Source: an uncultured Bacilli bacterium
GTDB lineage: Bacteria > Bacillota_I > Bacilli_A > RF39 > UBA660
DNA: 64,000 bases
Reading direction: 5' to 3'
NCBI GenBank assembly: GCA_944373145.1
Contig: CALWAL010000001.1
Coordinates: 64,105-128,104, forward strand
The notes beneath the pieces were generated by a model. The model was not told the DNA's origin and made no database searches. It saw only the letters and a list, made by a program, of their open reading frames with translations. The translations under genes and the position numbers were made by a program. Below are positions 28,149-63,823 of this stretch, piece after piece; the stretch's first letter is position 1; each line of letters starts with the position of its first letter.

Positions 28149-28401
28149 ACAATAGCACTACACTCGTACCATTACGAATATTTGTATCACGTACCAACGT
28201 ATCAATAGGATAAATTTCACCGTTATTTCGGTCATATAAGTAAGTACGATTAGTTCCTATAAAAGAGCCATTTGTTATTTCATATAAAGATTTATTTAAA
28301 AGATTAATAATATTTCCTATTTTACGATTAACTGGGAAGTAAACATTATAAGTTTGATCAATAGCTGGAACAATTAGTTCTACTAAAACTTTATTTTTCA
28401 T
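28147..28401 (-). CDS. esaB: YukD/EsaB-like ubiquitin-fold T7SS protein.
   Basis: About 84 aa (MKNKVLVELIV...YNVYFP...NGTSVVLL), matching the YukD beta-grasp pattern. GGAGG RBS. The start overlaps the essC stop. Confidence 0.7.
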   Translation of the reverse strand: MKNKVLVELIVPAIDQTYNVYFPVNRKIGNIINLLNKSLYEITNGSFIGTNRTYLYDRNNGEIYPIDTLVRDTNIRNGTSVVLL

Positions 28402-31400
28402 CGTTTCCCTCCTCCACATCTTCAACCATATAACGAATTGTTGTATGTTTTCCACGACTAATAGCAAATCCCATATAAGGGAAATTAGTTTTTCCATCTT
28501 CAGCTGTTATAGTTGATGTATTAATAGCTAATTGCGTTGCAACTCCTTCATCTAACCAAATACCATAAGCTGTATCAATATTAGTTTGATACCAAGGTTC
28601 TGTTTGTAATATTTTGTAAGCTGAATAGCTATCAAAGAAAACATAATAACTATTATTAATAACCGATGAATTGTTAAAAAGACTATTTAAAACGACTCGA
28701 CCATTTGCTGATAATTTTACTTTCATCTCTGATATACCAATAAATATATTTAAAGTTCTTACTTCTTTATCCTTAGCTTTAATAATATCATTATTTAACT
28801 TAATTATTTCACTATCATAGTTATTTTGAATATAATTCACATTGTCAATTCTTTTACTTAAAATGGCTGCAAAATCAATAACATTAATTTTTAAATTATC
28901 AATAAGTGATACCATTTTAATAAAAGTACTTAAGAAACTAAATTTATTATCATCAAATTTATTAAACAAAATAGGAATAAACTTGCTAGCCGTTAAATCA
29001 TAAGCATATGGAGTTTTAGATTCAACTGCATAGCCAATTGGAACATTTGTTAAATCATTTAAGTTATCTTTAACAGAACTAAAATAAACAACTTCTGGTA
29101 CCATTGGAATTTTTTTAGCTCGTACATTATAAGCTTGACTCAACTTTTTAGCTGTATCACGAACCAAATTATTTATTTCTTTTTTTGTTGTAATCAAGGC
29201 TGTTTGAAATTCATATGCCTTACTATCTTTAGCAACTAAACCACGTCCAAAATATTTAGTTGGTAATTGTCCTTTGATAGCACCAACTAAATTACGATAT
29301 TCTGTTTCATTTGGAATTTGCAGACATAATTTATGGCTAAAATTTTGCAACATTCTTAATTTAACTGTACTAGTTGAAATAGACGTAATGATAAATGATA
29401 TTCCATATTTATTGCCATCACGATAAAATGTTTGAATTGATTCAGCTACTCGAGCATAATTTTCTGAAAATATTTCATAATTGTTAATGATAGTAACTAT
29501 TAAAGGTAATTTATTACCGCTATTTTCAATATATTCTTTATAACTACCGCCATAATCAGCCATTAATTCTTTACGACGTTCAATTTCCTCATCAATCATC
29601 ATTAAAATACCCAAAATTTTATCTTGTTCTTCAGTCGTAGCAATTTCTCCTATATGTGGCATTTTATTGAAAGTTTTTAAAGCCTCCGAACCACAGTCAA
29701 TAACATAAAAATTAATCTCATCTGGTGTATGTTCCAAAGAAGCTGACCACAAAATAGTCTGAACAAGATTTTCTTTACCAGCACCAGGTTGTCCCCAAAT
29801 AATAGCATTACCGTTCATTAAATCTAAAGTTAAAATACCTTGTTCTTGTTGTGATGGATTATCATATTCACCAATAACAGGATTAATATGATATGGCGTT
29901 GGTTTATAATGATATTTTTTCTTAATCTCATCTACAAATATTTCTTCTGGAATAGGATCTAGCCAAAGCGTACTTGTCTTCAAATTTTCTTTTTTACCTA
30001 AGTTATAAATATATTTAACGATATTTGTTAATTGATCCCCATAATTAGTATTATCTGTTTCAATTTTAATTAAATCTTTAATGCTTTTTGTAACATTTCC
30101 AACATTATCTATAAAATCTATTGAATCATCAATTTTCTTAATTACTCGATCAGATGGAACATATTTTGCCCCAGCCCATCCTGATTGACCTTTAGCAAAA
30201 TAATCATCATAACCAACTTGCAAATAAAAGCGCCCTGTTTCTTTAATACTAGCCGCTTCTGGGCGTTTTAACATTTCCATACTATCAGCTCGATCTTGAA
30301 CTTTTAAGCATACTTTAAATTTTGAATTACTCCAAATTTGATCATTAACTACACCACTAGGTTTTTGTGTTGCCAAAATAAGATGTACTCCTAATGAACG
30401 ACCGATACGAGCCGTTTGAATCAATTGTTGCATGAATTCAGGTTGTTGGCTTTTTAACTCGGCAAATTCATCACTAATAATAAATAAATGTGCCATTGGC
30501 TCTTTTACTTGACCTTCACGATATAACCGTTGATATTTATAAATGTCGATGGTTGATTCACCTAAAACATCACGAGTTTCATTAAAAATACGTTGCCGTC
30601 TTTTTAATTCTGACTCAATTGAAACTAAAGTTCTATTCATTGAAGCTGTATCTAGATTAGTAATCGTCCCAGCTAAATGAGGAATACGAACACCTAACTC
30701 CTTATTTTCAAATGCTCCAGCCAAGCCACCACCTTTATAGTCAATAAGAACGAATTGTACTTCATATGGATGATAATTAACACACATTGATAAAATATAT
30801 GTAATAATAAATTCTGACTTACCACTACCAGTTGAGCCAGCAATTAAACCATGTGGTCCATGAAATTTTTCGTGAAGATTTAATTTAAACTGTTCACCAC
30901 TTGCGTGAACACCAATCGTTGTATTTAAACTGTTAACAGGATTATTAGTCTGCCAACGATTTAAAACATTTAATTGTTCAATTTTAGAAACATTAAGCAT
31001 TTCCAAAAATGAAATAGAGTTAGGCAAAACGGATATTCCTTCTTTACTTAATAAAGGAATATTATTAACTTTTTGACAAAGATATTCCATATCAGCATTG
31101 TCCAAATATTCTGTTTTAAAAACAATCTGATTACTAGAATTTATATTACTCTCTAAAATACAACCTTCATTATCACCTATCTCAATGAATGACTCGCATT
31201 TAGCCGGTAAATTCTTCATTGTACTTGAAAAAATAGCAATACTAAATCCATAATTGGTATCAGCATATTTCAAAATATTACTAATGATTGGAGCTTCATC
31301 ACTACTCTTATAATCATCGCAAATAATTAAATAATATGGTAAAAAGTTTTTATATTCATCAGTTTTTTTTATGTCTTCAGCTTCACTTTTATCTTTTACT

Positions 31401-33007
31401 TTATTTTCTAATAAATCTTTACGAGTTTTAAATTCACTCTCCAAAAAAGATGAAACTTCTTTTATTTCTTCTGCATTCGTAGCAAAAAAGCGTAAACTTT
31501 TGTCATCATTAAAACAGTATGGTGAATACTTTAAATAGTTCCAACGCGATTGATTTTTTTCATTAGTTAAAATAACTATTTTTAGATCGCCACCACTATG
31601 AAGCGCTAAAAGTTGAACCATCAAACCATTAATATAATCGTTTTTACGATTAGCACTACAAATAAAGGCTGAAATTTTTTTATCGATCAAAGAAATATTA
31701 ATAGGAACATCGACTAATTTTTTATGACGATCGACAATTGTATAAACTCGTTTTAATAAATCATCATCATCTAAAGTAAACTTTTCCTTAGGTGCCACAA
31801 TATGCAATGGAGTGTTAACACTTCCTAATCCTAAGCGCAATTTCAAAAAATCATCATCAGATATGTTCCTTCCCCAAAAATTACGATTATTAACAGAGTT
31901 TATAACGTTAACGCAACCATTAGCGGTTAAACTGTTATCGCGCATAATTTGGGCCTGTTTTTTCATAATCATTATAATTTTTTCTTCTTTTTCATCTAAA
32001 TAATCGTTGTATTTACGAATGCGAAGTTCTTCTCTTTCTGCTCTTTTCTTTTTATGGTAAGCTGATGCCATTTTAGGAATAATTAAACTTCCAACAATCA
32101 TTGCAATACATAAGACAATTTGCGGCAAAGCCGACATGATGGTTCTTGTCCCTGTCATCAATCCGTAACCAACATTATATCCCATAACAAGTGAAGAGGC
32201 TCCCATCGTAATACTACTACCGATTGTCAACCAAAACGGTGTATCTTCTTCTTTTTCGGAAGCTGGTGGAGCATCTATTTCCAATTCTTCTTCTTCAACT
32301 ACTTCTCTAATTCTTGGTGTATGAAAAAAATAATCATCGTCGTCATATAAATCCATTGATTGCTGTTCATCACTAACTGGAGTATATTCTTGATTAGTTT
32401 GAGCAGGTTGATAAGTATAAGCATTCAAGCCTGCCACTGTTACCAATTTATTTGGATTATTAATTTGAATAAAATGTTGCATCCAAACAATTTTTAAACC
32501 TTTAATAAAAATTGTATCTCCGGCATGTAAAACTGCTTTTGTAACGCGATTGCCATTTAAATAAGTAGCATCATTAGCGTTTATAAACCAATTTTGACCT
32601 TCATATGTAATAAGTGCATGACTAGATGCAATGTTATTATTATGGTAACAAATATTGCAATTATTTTCTTTACCTATTAAAAGTTGTTTTAGGCCTTTAA
32701 ATTCTAATTTATAAGTTTCAACCTCAACAGTAGGTAGTGCATATAATACAATATTTTCTTGGCTAGAAACAACTTTCAAGTCATAAGAACCATAATCAAT
32801 TAAAGATGCTTCGTCCGAAAATGTAGAATTGTTTACAACATCAACACTACCATTGCTTTTAATTTTCCACTTACCTTGATCAGCTTCAAACGATAAAATA
32901 CAATCTTTACCCTTGCTCGTTTTATGGTTAACAACGAAAGAATCTTCAATCTTTGAAGGCAATTCATATTTAAATATTTTATCTTCTTCAACTAAAAATA
33001 TTCGCAT
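28391..33007 (-). CDS. essC: Type VII secretion FtsK/SpoIIIE-family ATPase EssC.
   Basis: About 1538 aa. N-terminal tandem FHA-like region. TM segments (ITMGASSLVMGY..., IVLCIAMIVGSLIIP). Three P-loop domains (GSTGSGKSE; GQPGAGKEN; a third degenerate). Start set at the ATG with 8-nt spacing from AGGAG. Confidence 0.88.
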   Translation of the reverse strand: MRIFLVEEDKIFKYELPSKIEDSFVVNHKTSKGKDCILSFEADQGKWKIKSNGSVDVVNNSTFSDEASLIDYGSYDLKVVSSQENIVLYALPTVEVETYKLEFKGLKQLLIGKENNCNICYHNNNIASSHALITYEGQNWFINANDATYLNGNRVTKAVLHAGDTIFIKGLKIVWMQHFIQINNPNKLVTVAGLNAYTYQPAQTNQEYTPVSDEQQSMDLYDDDDYFFHTPRIREVVEEEELEIDAPPASEKEEDTPFWLTIGSSITMGASSLVMGYNVGYGLMTGTRTIMSALPQIVLCIAMIVGSLIIPKMASAYHKKKRAEREELRIRKYNDYLDEKEEKIIMIMKKQAQIMRDNSLTANGCVNVINSVNNRNFWGRNISDDDFLKLRLGLGSVNTPLHIVAPKEKFTLDDDDLLKRVYTIVDRHKKLVDVPINISLIDKKISAFICSANRKNDYINGLMVQLLALHSGGDLKIVILTNEKNQSRWNYLKYSPYCFNDDKSLRFFATNAEEIKEVSSFLESEFKTRKDLLENKVKDKSEAEDIKKTDEYKNFLPYYLIICDDYKSSDEAPIISNILKYADTNYGFSIAIFSSTMKNLPAKCESFIEIGDNEGCILESNINSSNQIVFKTEYLDNADMEYLCQKVNNIPLLSKEGISVLPNSISFLEMLNVSKIEQLNVLNRWQTNNPVNSLNTTIGVHASGEQFKLNLHEKFHGPHGLIAGSTGSGKSEFIITYILSMCVNYHPYEVQFVLIDYKGGGLAGAFENKELGVRIPHLAGTITNLDTASMNRTLVSIESELKRRQRIFNETRDVLGESTIDIYKYQRLYREGQVKEPMAHLFIISDEFAELKSQQPEFMQQLIQTARIGRSLGVHLILATQKPSGVVNDQIWSNSKFKVCLKVQDRADSMEMLKRPEAASIKETGRFYLQVGYDDYFAKGQSGWAGAKYVPSDRVIKKIDDSIDFIDNVGNVTKSIKDLIKIETDNTNYGDQLTNIVKYIYNLGKKENLKTSTLWLDPIPEEIFVDEIKKKYHYKPTPYHINPVIGEYDNPSQQEQGILTLDLMNGNAIIWGQPGAGKENLVQTILWSASLEHTPDEINFYVIDCGSEALKTFNKMPHIGEIATTEEQDKILGILMMIDEEIERRKELMADYGGSYKEYIENSGNKLPLIVTIINNYEIFSENYARVAESIQTFYRDGNKYGISFIITSISTSTVKLRMLQNFSHKLCLQIPNETEYRNLVGAIKGQLPTKYFGRGLVAKDSKAYEFQTALITTKKEINNLVRDTAKKLSQAYNVRAKKIPMVPEVVYFSSVKDNLNDLTNVPIGYAVESKTPYAYDLTASKFIPILFNKFDDNKFSFLSTFIKMVSLIDNLKINVIDFAAILSKRIDNVNYIQNNYDSEIIKLNNDIIKAKDKEVRTLNIFIGISEMKVKLSANGRVVLNSLFNNSSVINNSYYVFFDSYSAYKILQTEPWYQTNIDTAYGIWLDEGVATQLAINTSTITAEDGKTNFPYMGFAISRGKHTTIRYMVEDVEEGNDEK

Positions 33008-33118
33008 ACACACAACTCCTACTATTCTTCTATTATATATAACATATTATATCGAACTTTTTGGACTTTTACAATACATTATTCTTGCGGCAAAAACTAT
33101 TTAATGATATAGTAATTA

Positions 33119-52003: not shown

Positions 52004-52831
52004 CTAAAATTTAATTAATAATCTTTGTCCTGCTTTAATTAAATTAGGATTATCTCCAATAATATCTTTATTTTCTTCATATAAATCTTTCCAATATACT
52101 TTATACTTCATCGCTATATCCCATAAAGTATCTCCTTTTTGAACTATATAATATTTATTATCATTGCTTAATATTTCATTAACCAAATCTTGTATCTCAT
52201 TATAATTATATCCTGCTTCTTCTAACCTTTTCTTTCGCATATTTCCATTATCCCATTTTCCTTGAATAACTTCCTTAGCAATTTCATTATTAGATTTTTT
52301 TAAATTATTACTTTTTTCTTCATAGATTTTCCATTCATATGAATTTTTAGATACTTTCACATCTGGATGTAAAAATAACGCTTTAGTTATATCATATTGA
52401 TTATTAATAAGCCAAGCATATGCTTTTACTTTTGGTTGATACTTTCCTTTATACCAACCAATTCCTTTAAATCTTCCTTTTCCTACTGCAATATGAATGT
52501 GACTACCAGTTACATTACCTTTTACTCCAGGTTGATAGTATATTTCACTTTGCTTTATCTTTTTATTAATGTATAAATCTGATACATCATTATCATGTAA
52601 TGTCATAATAGTCATATAATCAATTGTTCCATCAGCATATTCTACTTTATTTAAACTCTCTAACCATATGCCATTACAATTACTATATTTTCTTTTTATT
52701 TTACCAGTAAACGGAGCTTTTAAATATTTTAGTTTTGATATATCAATAGCTAAATCACCATTATGAGAAAAATTGCTATTCATATTTTGACTAATATATA
52801 AAACATCTACATTAAGTATAGCTTTCTCCAT
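52004..52831 (-). CDS. Peptidoglycan hydrolase: M23-like endopeptidase domain plus C-terminal LysM (endolysin-like).
   Basis: SHNGDLAID ... TGSHIHIA align with the M23 HxxxD ... HxH motifs (compare lysostaphin HYGVD ... HLHF). C-terminal LysM (YIVQKGDTLWDIAMKY...AGQRLLI). No signal peptide. Confidence 0.6.
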   Translation of the reverse strand: MEKAILNVDVLYISQNMNSNFSHNGDLAIDISKLKYLKAPFTGKIKRKYSNCNGIWLESLNKVEYADGTIDYMTIMTLHDNDVSDLYINKKIKQSEIYYQPGVKGNVTGSHIHIAVGKGRFKGIGWYKGKYQPKVKAYAWLINNQYDITKALFLHPDVKVSKNSYEWKIYEEKSNNLKKSNNEIAKEVIQGKWDNGNMRKKRLEEAGYNYNEIQDLVNEILSNDNKYYIVQKGDTLWDIAMKYKVYWKDLYEENKDIIGDNPNLIKAGQRLLIKF

Positions 52832-53024
52832 TTAACTTCTCCTGTATTAAATTTAAAACTGCACTTATTCCCATAGCAATCGCACCTACCATCATAGATT
52901 TAACTAGATCAAAATTAGATAAATCTGTAGTTGGTAAAACAACAATGATGCTTGCGATGAAGCCTTCTATAAATGTTTTAAGCACTTTGCCAAGTAACTT
53001 GTCGTTCAATATTTTCTTTAACAT
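52812..53024 (-). CDS. Holin-like small membrane protein (phiLC3-type topology).
   Basis: 70 aa. Basic N-terminus, two hydrophobic helices separated by a PTTDLSNF turn, polar C-terminus. Overlaps the lysin gene start. Confidence 0.5.
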   Translation of the reverse strand: MLKKILNDKLLGKVLKTFIEGFIASIIVVLPTTDLSNFDLVKSMMVGAIAMGISAVLNLIQEKLNGESYT

Positions 53025-53391
53025 CTTCTACCTCCTTTAACTCACTAGGTAATTTATATAATTCATCAACCATATTTTTAGCAAATATATCACCTTCAAA
53101 GTGTTGATAATTCCTATAAATTTCACTAATATTATCTTTCATATAATTAGGACAGTATCCTAATTCCATATATTTTTCATATATTCTAATAATTTCATTT
53201 TTTAGTAATGCTTTTAAGCCATTTTTTAAACTCATATAACCTTTTAACATATAAGCTACACTAGAACTTATAATTGTAAAAAGTATCTCTAACCAATACT
53301 TTAAAATAAACTCAATCATATATATCACCTCTTCAAGATAAAAATGGAGATATCGCTTGATATCTCCGAAATAAAACCTAAAAATTTTCAT
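52978..53391 (-). CDS. Small membrane protein of phage-lysis-cassette type (XhlA/BhlA-like?). The true start is probably the internal MIEFILKY.
   Basis: N-terminal TM (WLEILFTIISSSVAYML) followed by a charged helical tail. Sits directly upstream of the holin-like gene. Confidence 0.35.
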   Translation of the reverse strand: MKIFRFYFGDIKRYLHFYLEEVIYMIEFILKYWLEILFTIISSSVAYMLKGYMSLKNGLKALLKNEIIRIYEKYMELGYCPNYMKDNISEIYRNYQHFEGDIFAKNMVDELYKLPSELKEVEDVKENIERQVTWQSA

Positions 53392-53821
53392 CTATGATGT
53401 ATATAAAATTACTATTATATGGCCATAAAATATGCAATCGATCTCGCCCATTATTAGCAGTTTCATAATAATATAAGCATTTTTCATCTATTCGTGGAAT
53501 ATTTTTTTCTAAATTTAACTCATTCATAAATATTTCATTCAATAAAACTTTTTTTTCTTCTTCAATATACCTCCATTCAAGTTTTAGAAGTTCTTTCTTC
53601 TTATTGTCGTCAGCATATTCATAAACACTATACTTAGTATAATCAGAAAAATAAAATTTCTCCTGATAATATATTACATAGTCAGGCACCGGAATCTTAA
53701 CTTCATACTTTATTTTCATTTTTTCATAATGGCTTAGCATATGATTATTATCAACAGATACGAATAAAATACTAAGACAAATCATAACTAAAACAAATAT
53801 TAAAAAAAGAAATTTTTTCAT
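53378..53821 (-). CDS. Candidate Rhs-toxin immunity protein (membrane-anchored or secreted, 147 aa).
   Basis: Located immediately 3' of the Rhs toxin gene. N-terminal signal/TM (FLFLIFVLVMICLSILFV). Confidence 0.45.
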   Translation of the reverse strand: MKKFLFLIFVLVMICLSILFVSVDNNHMLSHYEKMKIKYEVKIPVPDYVIYYQEKFYFSDYTKYSVYEYADDNKKKELLKLEWRYIEEEKKVLLNEIFMNELNLEKNIPRIDEKCLYYYETANNGRDRLHILWPYNSNFIYIIDENF

Positions 53822-53842
53822 TGAATCACCCTTGAATAATTT

Positions 53843-56800
53843 TTACCATTCATAATTGCATTTGCTAACATCACCAATAATATAAATTGAAAAATCGGTT
53901 TCCCAATAATATGGGGTTAAAATACCCATATCTTGCCACATATACCCCAAATTATTAGCAAATCCAGAAAAAGTACTATCATCTCGCCATTCATCAAAAT
54001 CATATGTATCATATACCTTAACATCAATAAACCAAACATCTTCACACTTTTCTGATTGATAACCATATATTTCAAAATTTGCTTTTCCAACCCCGTTTTT
54101 CAAATTAGATGTTGAAGAAAAATTTTTACTTGAAACAACAGTAAATTTGCCATTTTTACTGTTTTTGATGCCCTTGCTTATTTCTTCATTTATCTCTTTA
54201 GAACTTCCTAACTCGTTGGTTAACTCAATATAAATATCAGTCGACAATTTTTTTCCTTTTCCTTTGGCTGAATGATTCAACATTTTACTAGCTAATTCAA
54301 CCTTTTCAAATTTAGATAAAAAATAATTTCCTATTTTTATTGCTAATTTAGTCAACCATCTAATTCCAAAACCATTTTTATCTATGTTATTAATATAGTC
54401 GTTGCTACAATAAGCATATAAATTTAGGCTCATTATATCTTGATTAGAGGCCATAATACCATCTGCGTTTAAAAATCTACCAAATGTAGTACTGTAATAT
54501 CTACTATTTAAATAATATAAGTTAGTTTCATTATCATAATAGTAACTCCTATATCTAAATGGATTTATAATACCTATATGATTACTATCTGTGATATCAT
54601 TACCATTACTATCTTTAATAGATAATATGTTTCCCCAACTGTCATATCGATATTTAACTATTAAATTACAATTACTATCCAATATTCCTATAATATCTTT
54701 TTGTATATTTTTAACATAATAGTACACATCATTATTATATTTAAAACCTATCAAATCGTCCATACTATTACGTATATAGTATATCACATTATTATTTCTT
54801 TTTTCAAATATAATTGATGTTCCCTCAAGATAATATTCGGTTTTTACTCCATTTACTGTTTTACCAATTCTAATACCATTACTATTATATTTGTAAGTGT
54901 TATTATTATAACTATTTAATTGTCTACCATTTATCCATGTTAATGTATTATTTCCAATTGTTAATGGATTACCTATATCATCATAGGAAATTGTTAAATC
55001 ATTAAATTTAGTTAACTGATCTTTCCAATTAGAATTATTGTACTCATATTTATCTTCTAATTTAATATCATAATTATTCATATCTAGTACTTTTCTATTT
55101 AAGATATTTCCAAATTTATCATAGGTATATTTGATAATTTCTTTATCAATATAATTATTCTCTTCAATTAATTGATTATATTTATCATATCTATACTCAT
55201 TTTCCAAAATGTTATTATGATATATATGTGTGATATTATTTAACTTATCATACTTATATTTATAAATATCATTATTATTTTTTATACTATCGATTAATAA
55301 AGATGTTCTATTACCATTTGTTAAATATGTGTATGTTGTATTAAAAACATTGCTAATATTTCTATTTATTAATCTTCCTAATGAATCATAATTATAATTA
55401 ATACTATTATTATCAAATTCAGTTTTTACAATTGCATCTTCTTTATTTAAAATATTAGTAATACTATTCTGAACGTTATCTAAACTGTGTTCTTTACCGA
55501 TTACATTATCGCAAGTATCATAAATATATTTTACTTCAAATTCATTAAATTTATATAAATTTAATTTTTGTGACAAATCATACGCATATTTATAAATATC
55601 ACTATTAGTTTCTAATTTAACTAGATTACCTTGATTATCATAACTATATTTATATGTATCATTTGATTTAATTATTGTTTTAACTCTATCGAAATTATCA
55701 TATGCATAACTAATAATATGACCATTACCATATGTAGAAGATATCAGATTACCGTTATTTTCTTCATAATGGTTTGTAACTAAAGTAATATTATCTCCAA
55801 TTTTAATTTCTTTAATGTTTAAAAATTCATCATAAACAAAATTATATTCTTTATCATCATCTTTTATTTTAGATAATACATTATTAGAATTATAGGTATA
55901 ATTTATTTTTTTATCACCTTGATTAATTTCAATAACTCTCTTTTTATCATCATAAGTGTAAGAGGTTACTTTTCCTTTAGGATTAGTTATTGAATTTAGT
56001 AATCCAGTCAGTAAATCAATATCATATGTCATTTTGTTTAAATTAGAATCTGTTACACTTTTTATAAATTTACTATCTTCAGTGTATTCAGCACTACTTT
56101 CAATAAATTCATTTTCTATAGTTTCAATGTAAAATTCAAAATTTGGATCCTGTTCTATTAACTCTGATATAAATAGAATATTATTTTCTCTTTTAATATA
56201 TCTAGGCAAATTACTTTCAACTGTATCATTTTCATCGCGATATAATTGGAAATAATAGCTTCCATTTTCTTGCTCTATTAATTTAAATAGTGAATTATTT
56301 AAATTATTTGGAGCTAATACAATCTGATTAGATGTAGCAGTAAAATAATTATCGCCTATTACATTATGATTAATTGTATAATAGCCATTTTCTAATAAGG
56401 TAAATTGCCATAAATCATGATTACACTCCTCATCATCAAAAACAATTGCTTTATTGATATTTTTTAAATAATCATTAGTTCCTTTACATCTAATACGATA
56501 TAAACCATTAGTTATTTCATTTGGAATTTTGTTAACAATTTTAGTAATAATCGGATTGCCAAAACTATCATACTTAATGGTATTATTAATTCCAGTTTCT
56601 GAGATTCCATTTAAAATACGTTCTGACTTTAAATTATCATATTCGTATTTTAAATTTTTTCCTTGCGGATCAGTCATTTTGATCAATTGATTGTTTGAAT
56701 CATATTTAAAATTACTTGTCTCATTTGATAAATTTGATATTGTTGATACGTTACCATTTCCATCATAATTATAATTGATTTCTCTAGGATCTTTAAACAT

Positions 56801-60015: not shown

Positions 60016-61191
60016 CTAAGCAACTCTTTTCCATAAAAATTTATCACAGTAGCTATCTATCATTAAATCTTTAGCAAGTGTAATGTTAAACATCAAATAA
60101 TAAGATTTACCACTAGATGTTGAAGTATTATTAAATACATCTATTTGAGTCACTGTACCATTAGAGTATCCAACATTATATACAATTCCTGTATTACTAG
60201 CATCACTATAAGCTAATAATCCAAATAAACTCATACCCAAAGAAACTATTCCAAGATTTGATAAATTAAAGGAACCTAATTCACAACTATTATCGTTTAA
60301 AATTTTATTCACAGTAACTAATTGCCTAACATATAAATTATGTCCAGATCGGCATATATAGCAAGTACTACCTGATACATTAGTACCTGGAGTGAAATAT
60401 GTGGTATCACTAACTGAATTAATTGTTGATTGAAATTCTTTATCTATCAATTCCCATAATCCACCAAAATAGTTTGTTGGATTATTATTAGTATTAGAAG
60501 TATATATACTTCCAACTGGATAAGCATTTAAAATATCAAAAGTTGGATTATTATTACTAGTAATGCTATTAACAACTAAATTTCCATTTGCATCCAAACT
60601 AAACTTATTATTTTTAGATGTAATACAATCAACAGTAGCGTTATTAACTTCTAAATTTAATTTATTTTCTGTTTTAGTAAATGCATCTTTAAAATAAATA
60701 TCTTCTAATGAAAAATCGCCTTTATTTTTATATTTGTGATTTGCATAAATAGCATTGTTTAAAAAATATTTATTCATATCATTGTTTTTAGGATAAATAA
60801 CTTCGATATCAGCACCACTATAATTTGTATAAATATAGTTAGTACCTTCAAATAAACAAACTAATAGAGTATCAACTTCCTCTACTGTTTCATCTAATCT
60901 AGTGACAGTAGTTTTCATTGCAATATCATTATCTTTAACTACTAAATTCATTTTAAATACATCGCTAGACTCACTAAACTGTAAAGCATTACTTAAATTA
61001 AAAATATATTCCCTTCTATTTTCTGTAGGAGTTGTAGAATTTTGTGTATCTACATATACAATTAAATCATTTGAAGTTGGCACTACAGTTGCACTATTTC
61101 TTTTTACTTGTAATTCTAATAATGGTGCATCTAAAGAATCATTAATAACTAATTCTCCTACACCGGTTAATTTTTGATCATCTAAATTCAT
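60016..61191 (-). CDS. Phage tail-collar/tail-fiber-like protein (391 aa).
   Basis: C-terminal AYPVGSIYTSNTNNNPTNYFGGLWELI resembles the phage tail collar domain consensus (PvGtI...P.G.L.CdG). Asn/Thr-rich beta region. No signal peptide. Lies 20 nt upstream of the Rhs gene. Confidence 0.45.
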   Translation of the reverse strand: MNLDDQKLTGVGELVINDSLDAPLLELQVKRNSATVVPTSNDLIVYVDTQNSTTPTENRREYIFNLSNALQFSESSDVFKMNLVVKDNDIAMKTTVTRLDETVEEVDTLLVCLFEGTNYIYTNYSGADIEVIYPKNNDMNKYFLNNAIYANHKYKNKGDFSLEDIYFKDAFTKTENKLNLEVNNATVDCITSKNNKFSLDANGNLVVNSITSNNNPTFDILNAYPVGSIYTSNTNNNPTNYFGGLWELIDKEFQSTINSVSDTTYFTPGTNVSGSTCYICRSGHNLYVRQLVTVNKILNDNSCELGSFNLSNLGIVSLGMSLFGLLAYSDASNTGIVYNVGYSNGTVTQIDVFNNTSTSSGKSYYLMFNITLAKDLMIDSYCDKFLWKRVA

Positions 61192-61573
61192 TTGTTTTTC
61201 CCTCCTTATTAATCAAAAATTTCTTCACTTCACAATTAAGCGGTTGATAGCTAATCAACTCCATAGGGATTCCACCTTCTTGAGTTTCACAAGACTACTA
61301 GAATAGAAGTATCATTATTGCTATTGTTTGTTATCGCATTATTAATAGCTACTTAATATTTATAACCAAGTATTAATCGCAAGCGTACTTGTTAACGTGC
61401 TAGAACAATAGGAATGTACTTAATTGTGTATATTAAATTGTCAAAGAGCATATATAGAGAAGGAATCTTTTATCAATAGTCACTTTAAATGAATAATCAA
61501 AATATAAAAAAAGGTATATAGTGATAATTTTATTCCTTCACTATATACCTCACTAAAAAGCTAAAAGTATAGT

Positions 61574-62032
61574 CTAAAATTTTAAATTTTTTAATATTCT
61601 TTTTAAACCGGCATTTATACTAAACTTTATTGCCATTTTTGTACAGTTCTCAATTTGAGCAATTTCCTCCAAAGTCATTTCTTCAAAATAATATAACTTT
61701 AATCTCTTTTTTTGAACTTCTGGTAATTTTTCTATTTCTTGATAAAGTCTTTCATAAACAATTTTTTCTAATACTATATCTTCTAATAGTTTTTGTTGAC
61801 CTTTAACTTTATGATATAAAATCTCATCACAGTATTCATATGAGACAAGATGGCGATCATATTCGTTCATTTCTTTTATTGTATCTAATTCAAATTGATT
61901 AAACTCTTTATATAATTCATCACTTATTTTTATTGATTGCTTATTACCCCTACTATCTATAAAAGTTAGCAAATGATCAACTTCCAATGTGTATGGATTG
62001 TCCTTTACTTTTCTTCTTTTTGGTAAATTCAT
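61574..62032 (-). CDS. Sigma-70 region-4-like HTH regulator (TcdR/UviA- or Tn916 Orf7-like small sigma-type protein).
   Basis: C-terminal KKRLKLYYFEEMTLEEIAQIENCTKMAIKFSINAGLKRILKNL matches the sigma region 4.2 pattern (compare TcdR ...KLYY...SRQ..NK...ALRKL). No convincing region 2. Confidence 0.5.
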   Translation of the reverse strand: MNLPKRRKVKDNPYTLEVDHLLTFIDSRGNKQSIKISDELYKEFNQFELDTIKEMNEYDRHLVSYEYCDEILYHKVKGQQKLLEDIVLEKIVYERLYQEIEKLPEVQKKRLKLYYFEEMTLEEIAQIENCTKMAIKFSINAGLKRILKNLKF

Positions 62033-63088: not shown

Positions 63089-63823
63089 TTATTTGGATTC
63101 AACCAAATATAAATCAAATGAAATATCTTGAATTTTATCATTTTCTTTATATTCAATATATAATATCAAATTATCTAACAATATTAAATCTTCAGAATTC
63201 TTTAACAATTCATCGACATATAATGTATATGTTTCTAAAAAATCACGCAATTTCATTTCTTTGTCAAAATTATATATCTCATTTTTTATTATTTTATCAT
63301 TGGAAAGCAACTTTACATAGTATGATTTAGAACTAATCTCATCTGTTGTTCCTTCATTATAGTCACTGTATTCTATATTTCTTAACACTATAATATTTCT
63401 ATGCGGATTTAATACTACTATCCCCTCTAAATTTAAATTACTATTACTAGAATAAACTTTAAATACTTTATATTGATTATACTTATTAATCGAAAAAAAT
63501 AATATTGAAAGTAAAAGTATAATTAAAATAGCTATTATAGCAGATATTAATATTCTTTTCTTACCTCTATTGTTGTAATACTTTAATGCTTCTATATTTA
63601 TATCTTTTTCTAAATTTCTTTCACCATTCAATAATTCTTTTACACTAATGTCTAATTTCTCACTTAAATCATTAAGAATAGAAATATCTGGTGCATTTTT
63701 TCCAGTTTCCCATCGACTTACAGTTTTATCATTTACCCCAAGCATCTCTCCAAGCTTTGCTTGAGTTAAATCTTTTTCTTTTCTTAAATTTGCTATAAAT
63801 GTTCCTACTTTATTTAAATCCAT
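63089..63823 (-). CDS. Membrane-anchored XRE-family HTH regulator with an extracytoplasmic C-terminal domain.
   Basis: N-terminal HTH (LRKEKDLTQAKLGEMLGVNDKTVSRWETGKNAPD). Single TM (ILISAIIAILIILLLSILFF). About 130-aa outside domain. Confidence 0.65.
   Translation of the reverse strand: MDLNKVGTFIANLRKEKDLTQAKLGEMLGVNDKTVSRWETGKNAPDISILNDLSEKLDISVKELLNGERNLEKDINIEALKYYNNRGKKRILISAIIAILIILLLSILFFSINKYNQYKVFKVYSSNSNLNLEGIVVLNPHRNIIVLRNIEYSDYNEGTTDEISSKSYYVKLLSNDKIIKNEIYNFDKEMKLRDFLETYTLYVDELLKNSEDLILLDNLILYIEYKENDKIQDISFDLYLVESK

Follow-up and report, generated by a model that had tools for sequence, protein, structure and literature searches.

The window, that is, the whole 64,000-nucleotide stretch of DNA that was analysed, comes from a spore-forming Gram-positive bacterium and carries an island in which a gene for a 2050-aa Rhs/YD-repeat protein is preceded by regulatory elements and a phage-like gene, and followed by a small 147-aa gene and a lysis cassette (Table 1). 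A sequence-only reading of this DNA had proposed that the C-terminal tip of the Rhs protein (CT) and the 147-aa protein form a new toxin/immunity pair. Both open reading frames were found on the minus strand as claimed, and the peptides quoted from them were present. We regard the CT and 147-aa pair as real and not a product of chance, since the whole locus was found identical in another assembly and sister strains hold the pair at 95% (CT) and 98% (147-aa protein) identity.

Table 1. Features of the Rhs island, in order of transcription; positions are those of the window.
Feature	Position	Strand	Basis
244-aa XRE-family HTH regulator with TM segment, head of the island	63089..63823	minus	PHROG, NCBIfam
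152-aa sigma-70 region-4 protein	61574..62032	minus	Pfam Sigma70_r4_2 2.7e-09
pemK RNA motif (RF02913), leader of the Gp10_C-Rhs operon	61261..61318	minus	47.1 bits vs gathering score 34.8
391-aa phage tail-fibre or baseplate-like protein (Gp10_C)	60016..61191	minus	Pfam Gp10_C 1.5e-08
Rhs/YD-repeat polymorphic toxin gene, 2050 aa	53843..59995	minus	ORF; Pfam RHS_repeat (PF05593) 1.9e-32
Rhs-associated core end, ...RYYSTTFGRFLNADG...NLYAYCSNDYINNIDKNG (aa 1784-1875)	54371..54646	minus	TIGR03696 match
C-terminal toxin domain (CT), 174 aa, GIRWL...NYEW	53846..54367	minus	sequence after TIGR03696 end
Predicted active-site motif D120-T-Y-D-F-D-E-W-R128, aligned to ColM D226-K-Y-D-F	53984..54010	minus	translation and alignment
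Candidate cognate immunity gene, 147 aa	53378..53821	minus	ORF
Terminator-like hairpin and U-run, 9-bp stem, GGAGAUAUC-AAGC-GAUAUCUCC	53336..53367	minus	folding -13.5 kcal/mol, z -2.8
113-aa protein with N-terminal TM helix, first lysis-cassette gene	52978..53319	minus	phrog_4105 (function unknown) 4e-10
70-aa holin-like membrane protein	52812..53024	minus	phrog_443 holin E 0.0016, weak
275-aa endolysin, N-terminal catalytic domain, then CW_7 and LysM wall-binding domains	52004..52831	minus	Pfam and PHROG

Sister strains keep the XRE regulator together with the locus. The sigma-70 region-4 protein scored 39.9 bits against NCBIfam sigma70-ECF, just under the cut-off of 42.9, and is a candidate locus-specific sigma factor or regulator. 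The pemK motif was also detected in a sister strain (L017, 49.9 bits; L numbers denote loci throughout), and a literature search on it found nothing. A scan for promoters returned 106 sites against 100.6 expected and was uninformative in this AT-rich DNA. The Gp10_C-like gene lies 20 bp upstream of the Rhs gene, and its product has no signal peptide or hydrophobic N-terminus. L005, L006 and L017 also have such a gene immediately before the Rhs gene, making the protein a conserved companion of Rhs proteins of this type.

In the Rhs protein, NCBIfam models matched a DNRLRE domain (DNRLRE_dom, 9.5e-21, aa 228-406), YD repeats (YD_repeat_2x, TIGR01643, 1.1e-20) and the Rhs-associated core (Rhs_assc_core, TIGR03696, 8.7e-16, profile positions 1-75 of 76). 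The protein has no N-terminal signal peptide or hydrophobic N-terminus, and neither Pfam nor NCBIfam yielded an LXG or WXG match. The YD/RHS repeats and the core stand directly before the variable CT, which begins at residue 1877. Because the TIGR03696 match stops at residue 1875 (...NNIDKNG), the variable domain comprises the last 174 aa. A variable tip after the Rhs core had thus been placed correctly, yet its supposed length of about 220 aa was too great (174 aa, or some 204 if counted from ...NADG), and the end proposed at 54560 falls beyond the CT, within the conserved core. The core end is the left boundary of an exchangeable cassette. The Rhs autoprotease motif retains its two Asp positions (…FLNADG… and …NIDKNG), and what is known of the family suggests that aspartyl autoproteolysis may free the CT inside the shell.

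Searches with single sequences and with profiles gave no match for the CT in Pfam, PHROGs, NCBIfam or PDB sequences. In line with the sequence-only reading, no nuclease, deaminase, ADP-ribosyltransferase or peptidase signature was detected in these libraries, and such readings of the CT were ruled out by the lack of any motif or fold match. A word-indexed search retrieved only 4 relatives of the CT, and a family emerged only with an exhaustive search, which collected 126 representatives at E<=1e-3, with the domain C-terminal in all. An Rhs_assc_core match lies upstream of the domain in 22 of 60 members, and the members that could be placed all come from Firmicutes MAGs. A profile built from a narrower CT alignment found 4 genome loci and 2 weak metagenome matches, one of which (L020) was opened and held nothing relevant; a profile search of IMG/VR found no relatives. 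Pfam Colicin_M (PF14859) matched 0 of 60 family members, the window CT included, at E<=0.01, while colicin M (ColM) itself scores 7e-91 in the same library, and DUF3289 likewise matched 0 of 60. The failure of every family member to match Colicin_M or any other model in the libraries speaks against the main reading that we set out below.

Colicin M kills bacteria by cutting lipid II, the cell-wall precursor, which sits at the outer face of the membrane. To our knowledge, ColM-type enzymes are the only protein toxins that enzymatically cut lipid II at its pyrophosphate link. The structure model of the CT is confident, globular and alpha/beta, and has the fold of the ColM catalytic domain (helices and an open half-barrel sheet). 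Comparison of the CT family with ColM by hhalign gave E values of 4.1e-5 and 3.7e-5, colinear across 111-124 columns, and paired the CT MF-x-H-x-LWG-x-G with ColM ALAHYLWGNG, and CT D120, Y122, D123 and F124 with ColM D226, Y228, D229 and F230. In 60 homologues D120 and N138 are invariant (D120 in 60/60), Y122 is kept in 57/60, F124 in 59/60 and R128 in 43/59, and position 123 is D in 45 and N in 15. The first half of the signature DxYD(x5)HR, formed in ColM by the essential D226, Y228 and D229, is therefore present in the CT (PMC8469651). Its second half, the essential H235-R236 dyad, has no in-register counterpart in the CT, and the 60-homologue alignment holds no conserved His; when the two sequences are set side by side without gaps, CT D129-D130 stand opposite the dyad, with the conserved R128 two residues earlier. 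The family has instead a signature of its own, DxY[DN]FxExR...ANNLGYxxQ...PYxW. The window CT carries N88 at a position that is Asp in 55/60 homologues; like the missing dyad, this weighs against the main reading. A TM-like helix lies just before the domain in 16 of 42 homologues; it is amphipathic in the window copy, and many members lack it.

All characterised enzymes with the ColM fold degrade lipid II, and the reviewed ColM orthologues are all proteobacterial (PMC8469651); ColM-fold type VI secretion (T6SS) effectors are likewise known from Gram-negative bacteria, including Bacteroides. As modelled, the CT is a remote ColM-like domain and not a new fold; its description as unclassified holds for the sequence libraries but not overall, given this remote membership of the ColM superfamily. 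We predict that it acts as a phosphodiesterase on lipid II or another undecaprenyl-pyrophosphate-linked precursor.

The 147-aa gene starts 21 bp downstream of the Rhs gene. After MKK, the N-terminus of its product is strongly hydrophobic (Kyte-Doolittle mean 3.18 over 19 residues), the sole such segment in the protein, and we saw no signal-peptidase or lipobox site there. It is therefore read as a signal anchor (about aa 4-23, 53753-53812), in agreement with the N-terminal signal or anchor first suggested, with the C-terminal domain predicted to lie outside the cytoplasm. Nothing in Pfam, PHROGs, NCBIfam or PDB sequences matched the protein, and in particular no generic phage or lipoprotein family did so. 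Its structure model is of low confidence (pLDDT 56), which we counted against the main reading. A word-indexed search found 7 near-identical relatives only, whereas a profile search placed it in a small, fast-evolving, unannotated family of 18 that includes genes downstream of homologous CTs in L002, L005 and L006. The link between these downstream proteins rests on that profile search and not on BLASTP, by which proteins of different loci match at or below significance, L005 versus L006 alone reaching E 0.001. An N-terminal anchor or lipobox occurs in the gene after the CT in 11 cassettes (the window, L002, L005-L009, L010 module C, L014 and L015 twice), the anchor in L006 being weaker, at a hydrophobicity of 1.51 against a cut-off of 1.6. 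Every known ColM immunity protein is associated with the membrane; Cmi, for one, has a TM anchor and resides in the periplasm (PMC5821083). Most likely, the 147-aa protein is the antidote of the CT. The ColM fold and the anchored or lipidated neighbour in 11 cassettes also uphold the proposal of a toxin with a target beyond the cytoplasm, be it the wall, the membrane or lipid II, and no toxin family with cytosolic immunity was matched.

The CT and the 147-aa gene move together between strains, and this, with the anchored partner in 11 cassettes, supports their pairing as toxin and immunity. In the sister strains L017-L019 the main Rhs carries another tip, and the CT persists as a frameshifted orphan of 95% identity, with an intact 147-aa gene (98% identical) after it. 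The same contig holds an orphan CT-immunity array (L010) upstream of the locus regulators, so that both polymorphism of the CT-immunity cassette and orphan modules are present. The terminator-like hairpin separates the immunity gene from the lysis genes and is the right end of the CT-immunity cassette; three orphan cassettes have, at the same place, each its own unrelated hairpin and U-run. The 113-aa gene occurs in four near-identical copies that each begin exactly at the ATG, and every orphan cassette ends with a copy of it. The 5' part of this gene serves as the repeated junction for recombination on the right-hand side of the CT-immunity cassettes. The longest-ORF call gives the gene 137 aa (to 53391), which would carry it across the hairpin and is probably an overestimate.

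The holin-like gene overlaps both its neighbours, as in a lysis cassette, and the endolysin matches Pfam CW_7 (3.6e-19) and LysM (6.4e-13) as well as endolysin families of PHROGs, the best at 3.5e-16. A second, truncated cassette copy lies upstream. In L005 a non-orthologous lysis cassette (Phage_holin_6_1 and GH25) occupies the same place, and L006 has none within 10 kb. Holin and endolysin genes here share a locus with an Rhs toxin lacking a signal peptide, as in type 10 release. As the Rhs and Gp10_C-like proteins lack signal peptides and the holin and endolysin genes follow, gene order makes release by lysis plausible. The window also holds a T7SS locus 20 kb from the Rhs locus, with an EssC-like gene (28391-33013) and DUF4176 genes; this, and the lack of a lysis cassette within 10 kb in L006, we counted against the main reading. 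No capsid, tail-tube, sheath or baseplate gene lies within 10 kb on either side, and the reading of the island as a prophage tail was rejected on that ground.

Taken together, these observations lead us to a main reading, to which we give a probability of about 0.6: an Rhs-delivered, lipid II-cutting enzyme of the ColM type and an exported 147-aa immunity protein, both in an exchangeable cassette, and release by lysis. The CT would be a diverged enzyme of this type, binding its metal through the invariant Asp120 within D-x-Y-D-F, as in ColM, and cutting the pyrophosphate link of lipid II or of a related undecaprenyl-pyrophosphate-sugar intermediate. It would be made inside the Rhs shell, whose aspartyl autoprotease probably cuts behind ...DKNG, and might be held at the membrane by the amphipathic or hydrophobic helix at its start. 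Acting at the outer face of the target-cell membrane, it would bring wall synthesis to a stop. The 147-aa protein, anchored in the producer membrane with its domain outside, would neutralise toxin from siblings, presumably by binding; its role would match that of Cmi towards ColM. The exchangeable cassette would consist of CT, immunity gene and private terminator and would move by recombination, with the Rhs core as its left border and the first lysis gene as its right. For release, the likeliest route would be controlled lysis of part of the producer population, the pattern known from colicin operons, Tc toxins and the C. difficile PaLoc. The 2050-aa shell must deliver its cargo through a Gram-positive wall, a point that we also counted against the main reading.

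The ColM fold might serve another chemistry or substrate, with the CT acting at the membrane surface on teichoic-acid or capsule undecaprenyl-pyrophosphate precursors, or on a phospholipid head group, and not on lipid II. The likeness to ColM is remote, the HR dyad of DxYD(x5)HR is not conserved in a family that has its own signature, and an exported immunity protein suits any target outside the cytoplasm. Yet conservation in the family is highest at the positions of ColM's metal-binding Asp and Y-D, and all characterised enzymes of the fold degrade lipid II (PMC8469651); we judge another substrate unlikely, though by no means negligible. Were the CT a membrane-disrupting or pore-forming toxin, its resemblance to ColM would be one of fold merely, and the anchored downstream protein would protect the membrane. 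The conserved residues are polar or acidic and gathered in one motif that aligns with the catalytic site, and the model is confidently globular alpha/beta, with many members lacking a hydrophobic helix. This makes pore formation very unlikely despite the TM-like helix in 16/42 homologues (amphipathic in the window copy) and the membrane location of immunity proteins to pore formers (PMC5821083).

Two further alternatives concern the neighbouring genes. As the 147-aa gene lies directly upstream of the lysis cassette, and its product has neither an annotated family nor a usable structure model, it could be an accessory of that cassette or an unrelated membrane protein, with the toxin then acting in the cytoplasm. 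We give this scant credit: the hairpin parts the gene from the lysis genes, it stays linked to the CT, not to them, in orphan cassettes and sister strains, and its relatives stand after homologous CTs even where the lysis cassette is a different one or missing; moreover, the protein has no PHROG match and the CT family no IMG/VR relative. Alternatively, the island could be a decaying prophage module of tail fibre and lysis genes, in which the Rhs protein is or was a virion or tailocin fibre component and the lysis genes are unrelated to release, or the toxin could be exported through the T7SS. The Gp10_C-like neighbour, the PHROG families of the 113-aa, holin and endolysin genes, the truncated second cassette copy upstream and the EssC-like ATPase and DUF4176 genes in the window speak for these scenarios. 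Against them stand the lack of structural phage genes for 10 kb on either side, the same gene order in L005 with a non-orthologous holin and endolysin, the absence of LXG or WXG from the Rhs protein and the housekeeping genes between it and the T7SS, and we consider these scenarios very improbable.

Set beside ColM and its orthologues (PaeM, PsyM/syringacin M, pectocins M1/M2 and burkhocins; PF14859), the locus shares a linked, membrane-associated immunity protein that is predicted to act outside the cytoplasm. It differs in that the CT has no Colicin_M match, no HR dyad and another motif spacing, the host is a Gram-positive spore former where known orthologues are proteobacterial (PMC8469651), and the carrier is a 2050-aa Rhs shell where ColM is a TonB/FhuA-parasitising colicin; the 147-aa protein appears unrelated in sequence to PmiA-C, BmiA/B and Cmi, the last being of a type with a YebF-like fold and two structural cysteines. 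DUF3289/DUF943 (BtpeA-BtpiA) are ColM-fold type VI secretion effectors of Gram-negative bacteria, whereas the locus has no DUF3289 match and, in its Gram-positive host, no T6SS, and its immunity protein is not DUF943. Closer in setting is TelC-TipC of Streptococcus intermedius, a Gram-positive interbacterial LXG toxin that destroys lipid II outside the cytoplasm and has an exported immunity protein (PMC5555719; for TipC, PMC12419801). TelC has a different fold (Lipocone superfamily, PMC12419801), an LXG N-terminus and T7SS export; here a ColM fold sits on an Rhs protein without LXG.

With Rhs/YD toxins such as WapA of Bacillus subtilis and enterobacterial Rhs proteins, the locus has in common the YD repeats, the core, a variable CT with adjacent immunity gene, and displaced orphan arrays. 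WapA has a signal peptide, whereas the Rhs protein described here has no signal peptide, PAAR, VgrG or LXG; also unlike these systems, its orphan array lies upstream of the regulators and its right-hand junction is a lysis-cassette gene. The TcC component of Tc toxins is itself an Rhs-type shell. Type 10 release, as of the Yersinia entomophaga Tc toxin and from the C. difficile PaLoc, similarly combines a large signal-less toxin with a phage-type holin, an endolysin and a dedicated regulator, in the PaLoc the sigma factor TcdR, the holin TcdE and the endolysin remnant TcdL (PMC10847048, PMC12485765, PMC10516005). For the present locus this function is read from gene order alone, and the cargo would be antibacterial where theirs is directed at a host.

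On a wider and decidedly tentative view, the locus could be a Gram-positive counterpart of a colicin operon on an Rhs carrier. Its regulators (XRE, sigma-like and pemK leader) would switch on the tail-fibre-like adhesin, the Rhs shell with its ColM-type lipid II hydrolase and the exported immunity protein. Read-through of the cassette-specific terminator would add holin-endolysin lysis of some producers and so release the weapon, and new tips would come in by recombination, with the Rhs core and the first lysis gene as borders.

In the Gram-positive literature that we searched, a ColM-like Rhs toxin with anchored immunity is undescribed. The CT family, with at least 126 sequence clusters covered by no domain library, would extend the ColM enzyme class to Gram-positive bacteria, in which lipid II can be reached without crossing an outer membrane. 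ColM-type enzymes are under study as antibacterial leads, and the family offers a natural alignment of diverged active sites in which DxYD is kept and HR lost. The locus is also a compact example of Rhs tips, immunity genes and terminators moving as one cassette beside a lysis module. The 147-aa family and the DUF3997 lipoproteins are two candidate immunity families; if the wider view above is true, both would be new ColM immunity families, and the CT would give the first demonstration of a ColM-type enzyme at work in Gram-positive bacteria and against them.

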